The translations under genes and the position numbers were made by a program. Under the pieces are notes generated by a model. It worked only from the letters and a program-made list of their open reading frames with translations. It did not search any database and was not told where the DNA came from. 64,000 bases of DNA, from the NCBI RefSeq assembly GCF_013122565.1, contig NZ_CP053258.1; one strand, given 5' to 3'. Positions within the stretch are counted from its first letter, which is position 1. Every line of letters begins with the position of its first letter. The DNA comes from Escherichia coli. GTDB taxonomy: Bacteria; Pseudomonadota; Gammaproteobacteria; Enterobacterales; Enterobacteriaceae. Positions 56,243 to 57,277 of this stretch are shown here, piece after piece.

Positions 56243-57277
56243 GCGTTCATTAATTTGATTTATTTGCATCCATCAGTGCTTTTAACTCCTCCGGCGTAAA
56301 CGGTGGTTTGCGTCGGTGCAACATCGCATTGCAATTAGGGCACACAGGTAGCAAAAAAACAAATGAGATCAAGGTAATATATCTTTGCTTGCAGGCTTGA
56401 ACAGCAGAAAATTTGCGAGCATGATCGCAATTATTTCACTGCCAGGGATATCAATGGCTTCCAGTAAATCGCTACAGCAGGCAATTGCCAATATAAAAAT
56501 CTGGCACAAGGGTGAACAGCGCGCGCCGCATAAGCCATTGTTATTGCTATACGTATTAGCGGGATACCTGCATGGACATCCGCGCCTTTTCGATTATTGT
56601 AGTGGAACAGTCTACGAGGATGCAGTTCGAAGTGAGTAAGTAAAGGTTGCTGGAAACGATCAATGCCGCCATACAATAATATTTGAGGATCAACAATGAG
56701 TAATAAAAATTACGAGAGTCACCGCAAAGCAATTGTTAGTAAAGGTATACCCCCCACTCTATTAAATAGGCTCACCAATTCGGATATTCAGGTGATCAAT
56801 ACCTTCTTAACACGAGTGAGCAAACTGGAACTATCTCAACAAGAGAAAGACTGGATCATAAAAATCATCTCTATGGTTTAGAGAATTTCAGCCTTGTAGC
56901 CTTTCAAGGGTTTTGTGTGGGTACAAACATTATCGAATCGGGATATAGCCGCAGCTGTAGCTGTACCCACATCAGTAAGTTGATGTAGGTTGACTTAGGT
57001 TGAGCGAAAAATAGCGAAAAGCCTTGTGTGGCGCGGATTTCAGTCACAAAAAAGACGTCCGTTGACGTCTATTGATGTTCCGATGGTGCGAAGGCCGCAC
57101 CGCTCTTTCAAATATAATTCATTGAAATTAATGTGATTTATTAACCCAAAAATCACTTTGTATACTCACATGTATACTCAGCGCGATTCTCTGAGAAATC
57201 AACAACCTGAATAATCAGTCGGTACTTTAACGCTTCACAATGTTTATAGGAATTTCAAGTAAAGACAATGCTGCATA

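Follow-up and report, generated by a model that had tools for sequence, protein, structure and literature searches.

The interval between nanS and an AbiE island in Escherichia coli is very probably a decayed leuX-distal border of the tRNA-leuX island hotspot

Introduction

P4-type tyrosine integrases use the tRNA 3′-end core as the segment for recombination, and PAI II536 and KpLE2 are leuX examples of tandem or accreted tRNA islands with integrases of this type. In E. coli, the interval running from ahr-leuX to nanS is a recognised leuX hotspot with ahr and the nan operon as its limits (bioRxiv 10.1101/2020.03.26.007484), and P4-like integrases insert islands at leuX (PMC3202238). The stretch of E. 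coli DNA analysed here (64,000 nucleotides, contig NZ_CP053258.1; hereafter the window) contains nanM (54091-55197), nanS, which ends at 56242, and, on the minus strand, an AbiEii gene (57278-58225; Pfam PF08843, E 6e-30). The question raised by this locus is what the DNA between nanS and the AbiEii gene is. The initial annotation had taken it for an element/backbone junction at the attachment-site-proximal end of the element, holding a palindrome and short open reading frames (ORFs) that might be gene fragments or small regulators. We propose that it is, very probably, the decayed leuX-distal border of the tRNA-leuX island hotspot, made up of three layers.

Materials and methods

Population counts refer to 5426 complete E. 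coli genomes and depend on the megablast threshold used. The ORF list took in frames of at least 30 aa; a 29-aa ORF at 56161-56250, discussed below, therefore lies outside it.

Results

The end of the present island

A 13-nt sequence on the minus strand (57096-57084) corresponds to the last 14 nt of the tRNA-Leu(CAA) gene leuX minus 1 nt (GGCCTTC-GCACCA versus GGCCTTCGGCACCA), in the orientation expected for leuX. This degenerate leuX 3′ end (57084-57097) has the features of an attR core: it repeats a tRNA 3′ end, lies at the end of an island and points the same way as the tRNA gene, and inter-strain homology breaks on both of its flanks, at 57097/57098 and at 57083/57084. In strains carrying other islands, the shared sequence stops at window positions 57094-57097 in most matches (a spread sample drawn from the 1437 genomes with a match). 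In E. coli W, the island arm and the core (57084-57277) are identical to the window over 194/194 positions and divergence sets in at 57083; beyond that point strain W has a K-12-type terminator, followed by the live integrase of a second, tandem island. Two break points bracketing a 14-bp core are what would be expected for site-specific recombination and, since homology breaks on either side of the core, the end of the present AbiE/CbtA island can be placed at about 57098. The 1-nt deletion in the core is common to junctions with different islands, and may have been inherited rather than made at each integration; some of the flanks may have been exchanged by homologous recombination and not by an integrase.

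The terminal (P side) arm of the present island occupies 57098-57277 on the minus strand and is 180/180 identical to that of E. coli W, where it abuts a different resident element. It contains two direct TGTATACTCA repeats (57159-57168 and 57171-57180), which are candidate integrase arm sites; in the DETEC-S792 island the corresponding position is taken by another pair of 8-nt repeats. The present island carries AbiEii/AbiEi, DUF4942, CbtA/CbeA, RadC and DUF932, and runs off the end of the window, its integrase, leuX and the matching attL lying beyond.

An element/backbone junction had been proposed for this interval, and an exact junction with a degenerate att core does lie inside it; most of the interval (56243-57083), however, is outside the present element, and this supposed backbone side is not pristine, being mostly the relic of an older island (see below). 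Nor is the interval attachment-site-proximal: it is the island end far from leuX and the integrase, the attR side, and ARAGORN found no tRNA gene in the whole 64-kb window, the tRNA being represented by the 13-nt 3′ fragment alone. No RNA family was recognised by Rfam between 55500 and 58000 (E ≤ 1), so neither the long inverted repeat nor the hairpins of the region belong to a known sRNA. As a separate observation, none of the complete E. coli genomes in the collection pairs exactly this relic allele with this island end, so the window strain is not among them: the best match across the junction (56243-57290) was 88% identical, and either side of the junction taken singly found matches ∼97% identical.

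A leuX-type terminator and an integrase leader without its integrase

Immediately beyond the core lies the sequence initially described as a perfect palindrome, gacgtccgttgacgtc. It was found within the range reported (at 57054-57069), but it is imperfect, because the central CGTT is not self-complementary: two self-complementary GACGTC hexamers surround it, which pair perfectly over 6 bp, or 7 bp when the adjacent A/T is counted, and leave a loop of 4 nt. Rather than a stand-alone palindrome, it is a leuX-type intrinsic terminator read on the minus strand (57047-57070). The terminator scan gave a 7-bp stem with four G-C pairs (AGACGTC/GACGTCT, 57070-57053), a 4-nt loop (AACG) and a run of six T residues (57052-57047) within TTTTTTG. 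The hairpin folds at -23.8 kcal/mol (z = -3.1), and the 1.5-kb region contains 5 terminator-like sites, compared with 1.2 ± 1.1 in shuffled sequences. Positions 57040-57083 are 43/45 identical to the sequence directly after the intact leuX of strains PapM-32-1 and S43, and, again on the minus strand, 57101-57034 can be aligned with the 3′ end of K-12 leuX, the terminator that follows it and the DNA further downstream. Strains K-12, W and HCP6S3_I1 have a doubly compensated variant, GACCTC...GAGGTC, in which a paired change keeps the stem. Transcripts reading past the end of the abiE operon, ∼208 nt upstream, may still be terminated at the hairpin.

Downstream of the terminator on the same strand, positions 56896-57039 are 75-79% identical to the intergenic region between leuX and the integrase gene of strains PapM-32-1, S43 and W (77-79% over ∼150 bp in PapM-32-1 and S43). 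In these strains, all three of which have a live P4-type integrase at this place, the homology gives out a few bases short of the ATG of the integrase gene; the window lacks an integrase here, the homology stopping at 56896 and being followed by the 61-aa ORF. The segment therefore reads as the P′ arm relic of a P4-type leuX island, that is, an integrase promoter/leader without its integrase. It contains a perfect 10-bp inverted repeat, TGTGGGTACA/TGTACCCACA (56916-56925 and 56962-56971), as well as TCAACCTA-type repeats. In K-12 the inverted repeat occurs as the compensatory variant TGTTGGTACA/TGTACCAACA, which suggests that, within the integrase leader, it could be a conserved structural element or a conserved binding site for a protein. 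The end point of the homology to live leuX-integrase regions is spanned by a weak terminator-like hairpin on the plus strand (56892-56909), directly after the 61-aa ORF, with a 5-bp stem followed by GTTTTGTGTG.

When a synthetic empty-site query was used, in which leuX was joined to the relic, strain HCP6S3_I1 was the sole listed genome among the 5426 to cover it fully. At this locus (NZ_CM149868.1, locus 5201-6800), ahr-leuX is followed by the relic, an intact HNH gene and nanS, with no island. The terminator of HCP6S3_I1 is chimeric, K-12-type next to the tRNA and relic-type beyond, which indicates a secondary deletion and not a virgin site; most likely, the comparison suggests, the island was lost by recombination or deletion between two homologous integrase-proximal arms. 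With a synthetic no-island query, no true empty attB was found among the 5426 genomes. The comparison with the yjhR-proximal part of KpLE2, initially proposed as a check, was of little help in placing the interval: K-12 shares the end of nanS and parts of the restriction endonuclease stub only, and the 61-aa ORF and the att relic are absent from its locus.

Two truncated restriction genes

All three reading frames of the initial annotation were present as described: an 84-aa ORF at 56385-56639 and a 61-aa ORF at 56696-56881, both on the plus strand, and a minus-strand frame ending in ...CPNCNAMLHRRKPPFTPEELKALMDANKSN at 56250-56372. The alternative that they are random ORFs fails, since two of them are truncated members of known families and the third gives a full-length PHROG match. 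Gene fragments account for two of the three frames, namely the 3′ stub of an HNH endonuclease gene and the 5′ stub of a phosphorothioate-dependent restriction endonuclease (REase) gene, but not for the 61-aa ORF, which is a complete gene.

The HNH stub (56250-56355, minus strand) consists of the last 34 codons and the stop codon, as delimited by alignment to the C-terminus of the DETEC-S792 and HCP6S3_I1 genes; the listed 40-aa frame (56250-56372) extends past it into unrelated sequence. The full McrA-like HNH gene has 216 codons, of which the window retains the final 106 bp. It is intact in strains HCP6S3_I1 and S43, and interrupted by an internal stop in DETEC-S792. The full-length protein matches Pfam HNH weakly, PHROG HNH families, and the NF045808 profile marginally (E 0.0019). 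Its C-terminal HNH region resembles EcoKMcrA (6ghc) and its N-terminal region aligns with the ScoMcrA head domain (5zmm), both weakly (E about 0.01-0.02). The window differs from McrA-like HNH endonucleases in that the final 34 codons are the sole survivors: of the HNH domain (PF01844, McrA-like), only ...LLPVCPNCNAMLHRRK... is left, without a start codon.

The missing part was removed by a deletion of 571 bp, the scar of which lies at 56344-56355 and bears imperfect 12-bp direct repeats (ACAGGnAGCAAA) at its ends. It took HNH codons 1 to ∼182, including the start codon, and 26 bp upstream. The window aligns to positions 3901-4256 and 4828-5580 of the DETEC-S792 locus with a 12-bp overlap, and the deletion end points in strain OkiPb01713 are identical to those of the window; by these alignments, a microhomology deletion of 571 bp accounts for the loss of the HNH gene. 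In 1239 of the 5426 genomes (∼23%), 80% or more of the gene's length is retained. The partial matches that were sampled mostly consisted of the 106-bp stub seen in the window, and in O157:H7 strains 48 bp remain. The HNH gene beside nanS has been lost in several ways, by a nonsense codon, by the 571-bp deletion, by a 641-bp deletion in K-12 and in the 48-bp allele of O157:H7. RefSeq labels the corresponding place in other complete E. coli genomes ‘HNH endonuclease’ and ‘phosphorothioated DNA-binding restriction endonuclease’, usually with both as pseudogenes.

Antisense to the 3′ end of nanS is the 29-aa ORF MNAHLSRQNCKIASTNLSEIIPRRAAELK (56161-56250, minus strand), whose own ATG overlaps the HNH stop codon (TAATG); it is annotated after the intact HNH gene in HCP6S3_I1. 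It matches residues 6-32 of K-12 YthB (b4802), the difference being that YthB begins with MNKLP, the first five HNH codons, fused to it by the K-12-specific 641-bp deletion, while the ORF in the window is unfused. That deletion removed the HNH gene from codon 6 to the stop (NC_000913.3, locus 8557-8704, versus HCP6S3_I1, 6012-6800). The validated K-12 small protein YthB (MNKLPAHLSRQNCK...) therefore appears, from these alignments, to be a deletion product joining the HNH start to the nanS-antisense ORF. Another ORF, 56171-56269 (32 aa), had been considered as ythB and was discarded, as K-12 YthB is in the other frame, that of 56161-56250.

The 84-aa ORF contains the REase stub, about 49 codons beginning at the ATG at 56454 (56454-56603, plus strand; NCBIfam NF045808, E 2.4e-16). 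Residues 29-72 of the ORF correspond to positions 2-45 of the 284 of the profile, at 59.7 bits against a curated cut-off of 180. The 23 codons of the ORF that precede the ATG at 56454, the true start, are spurious, and homology with longer members of the family stops at ...RLFDY (∼56600), after which the frame continues to a stop at 56639. No C-terminal HNH domain was detected in the 84-aa frame with Pfam. The NF045808 type IV enzymes (ScoMcrA, SprMcrA and EcoWI) combine a sulfur-binding domain with an HNH domain; the stub matches their N-terminal ∼45 residues strongly, but keeps ∼16% of the protein, with neither the sulfur-binding cavity nor the HNH domain, and is a pseudogene stub. The same stub is an incomplete pseudogene according to RefSeq in other strains, and K-12 retains ∼100 damaged codons of the same gene. 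Both the HNH and the REase stubs would be non-functional.

A search for a full-length relative with the 50-aa stub returned short or partial proteins alone, and no intact ancestral locus. The idea that both stubs derive from one gene split by inversion was rejected: in HCP6S3_I1 and S43 the HNH gene is whole and has a start codon of its own, the NF045808 profile is marginal for the HNH protein (E 0.0019) and strong for the stub, and in K-12 the ∼100 codons of the second gene run on in the same direction. A 122-kb plasmid, pPK8568-122kb (NZ_CP080128.1, locus 4851-5278), has the stub and the 61-aa ORF as well, between two copies of IS1A, and a 292-bp segment of this region was found at 24 plasmid places. 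The plasmid copy appears to be a piece of chromosome captured by IS1 and, being trapped between IS1A copies, was set aside as a clue to the ancestral context.

A complete 61-aa gene

The 61-aa ORF (56696-56881, plus strand) is a complete gene of family phrog_25874, of unknown function, with a full-length profile match (E 6.8e-46, positions 1-61 of 61); homologs from two further loci match the profile too. An exhaustive search of representative proteins returned homologs of 64, 63 and 51 aa that were 61-70% identical. Two homologs lie in other mobile-element settings, one upstream of a 742-aa AAA_25 protein and the other after YeeR_C and Hha proteins, and in both the conservation covers the ORF and not its flanks. 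Between homologs, pN was 0.20-0.30 versus a pS of 0.83-0.97 (saturated). The presence of homologs in other elements with saturated synonymous sites points to a real coding family. Within E. coli, every allele examined had an intact ORF, the codon differences amounting to 3-4 synonymous changes and 2 non-synonymous, conservative ones, and the segment containing it was present in 970 of the 5426 genomes (about 18%). The AF2 model of the protein has four helices (pLDDT 81). A regulator role, as initially suggested for these frames, was not borne out: the protein had no match in Pfam or NCBIfam, and a Foldseek search of the AF2 model against the PDB gave no significant fold match, so nothing in it marks it as a regulator.

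Discussion

The analysis establishes what the pieces are, that they are homologous to live leuX-integrase junctions, where the homology breaks and that the deletion took place; the order of events is what we infer. The outermost layer (57098-57277) would be the last 180 bp of the present island and the middle layer (57084-57097) the decayed leuX 3′-end att core. The third (56250-57083) would be what remains of an older leuX island in tandem, displaced from the tRNA as newer islands integrated. On the minus strand, this relic would start with the leuX terminator and about 190 bp of the region upstream of the integrase; the integrase would then have been deleted, leaving the 61-aa gene, the ∼49-codon start of the REase gene and the last 34 codons of the HNH gene.

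This arrangement resembles other tandem tRNA islands in that the tRNA 3′ end is repeated at the distal end, in the orientation of the tRNA and with a homology break at the core, and in having the integrase-proximal arm of an older element directly past the core. It differs in that the second element of the window lacks an integrase and nearly all of its cargo, and in the 1-nt deletion of the core; E. coli W keeps its second integrase, and its tandem junction is the state that stacking of islands predicts. The border of the hotspot at nanS agrees with the limits described previously (bioRxiv 10.1101/2020.03.26.007484).

The segment between the 61-aa ORF and the core (56896-57083) might instead be the native chromosomal flank of leuX, the B′ arm of a virgin attB displaced by integration, and not the arm of an older island. 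Its position is exactly that of a displaced B′ arm, and in HCP6S3_I1 leuX directly adjoins it. However, in PapM-32-1, S43 and W this sequence leads directly to the ATG of a live P4-type integrase gene, so in those strains it is element-borne. A native flank is also hard to reconcile with the distribution of the region, as the adjoining 61-aa segment is found in just 970 of 5426 genomes and 56880-57290 has matches in just 1437, while the chimeric terminator of the island-free strain points to a secondary deletion between homologous arms. We regard a native flank as quite improbable. Still less credible, with very little probability left to it, is the proposal that GACGTC-CGTT-GACGTC serves not as a terminator but as a palindromic binding site for a protein, be it an operator or a restriction/modification target, or that it is an inverted repeat that arose by chance. 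GACGTC is indeed a palindromic hexamer present twice, and the plus strand is also terminator-like in score, but its tail is poor: the T6 run follows the stem on the minus strand only. Moreover, the spacing from the tRNA 3′ end equals that of the hairpin after functional leuX, and the K-12-type paired change preserves the stem (GACCTC/GAGGTC versus GACGTC/GACGTC).

That the short ORFs are functional small proteins or island regulators is unlikely. What speaks for function is the 61-aa ORF, intact in all alleles examined with mostly synonymous differences and strongly conserved across genera as a protein, together with the ATG and plausible ribosome-binding site retained by the REase stub. Against this, the 84-aa and 40-aa frames are truncated from enzymes of 284 and 216 aa, without the sulfur-binding cavity and most of the HNH motif, the 40-aa frame lacking a start and a promoter as well; the 61-aa protein is without a Pfam, NCBIfam or PDB fold match, and all three ORFs lie outside the present island. 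There is similarly a small chance that the relic is not inert, the 61-aa protein being a selected small factor (e.g. in recombination directionality or anti-defence) or the core a working secondary att site. If the latter were so, the decayed core would allow excision of the AbiE/CbtA island or the stacking of new islands.

The older-island reading requires nothing beyond known processes, by which the finding is fully explained; the structure is of a known kind and no new biology is implied. Its value is largely for annotation: the true end of the present island can be set at about 57098, the nanS-adjacent ‘backbone’ is an old island remnant, and three unannotated or oddly annotated short ORFs are accounted for. 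The locus also illustrates, on a small scale, the growth of tRNA hotspots through stacking and their decay through small deletions.

Phosphorothioate-modification (dnd) islands are reported to integrate at leuX in E. coli B7A and in Salmonella (PMC2663466). As a speculation, conflict with dnd islands could explain the decay of a phosphorothioate-dependent REase at the border of the same hotspot.

On the other side of the nan genes, window positions 50000-54090 contain a type II Zorya system (zorA2, zorB2, zorE) and a gene of the STY4851/ECs_5259 family directly upstream of nanM, the usual place of nanC. The best matches to this region, e.g. in strain S43, are 99.4% identical. With the Zorya region upstream and the leuX border downstream, nanM-nanS is flanked on both sides by variable DNA in this strain.
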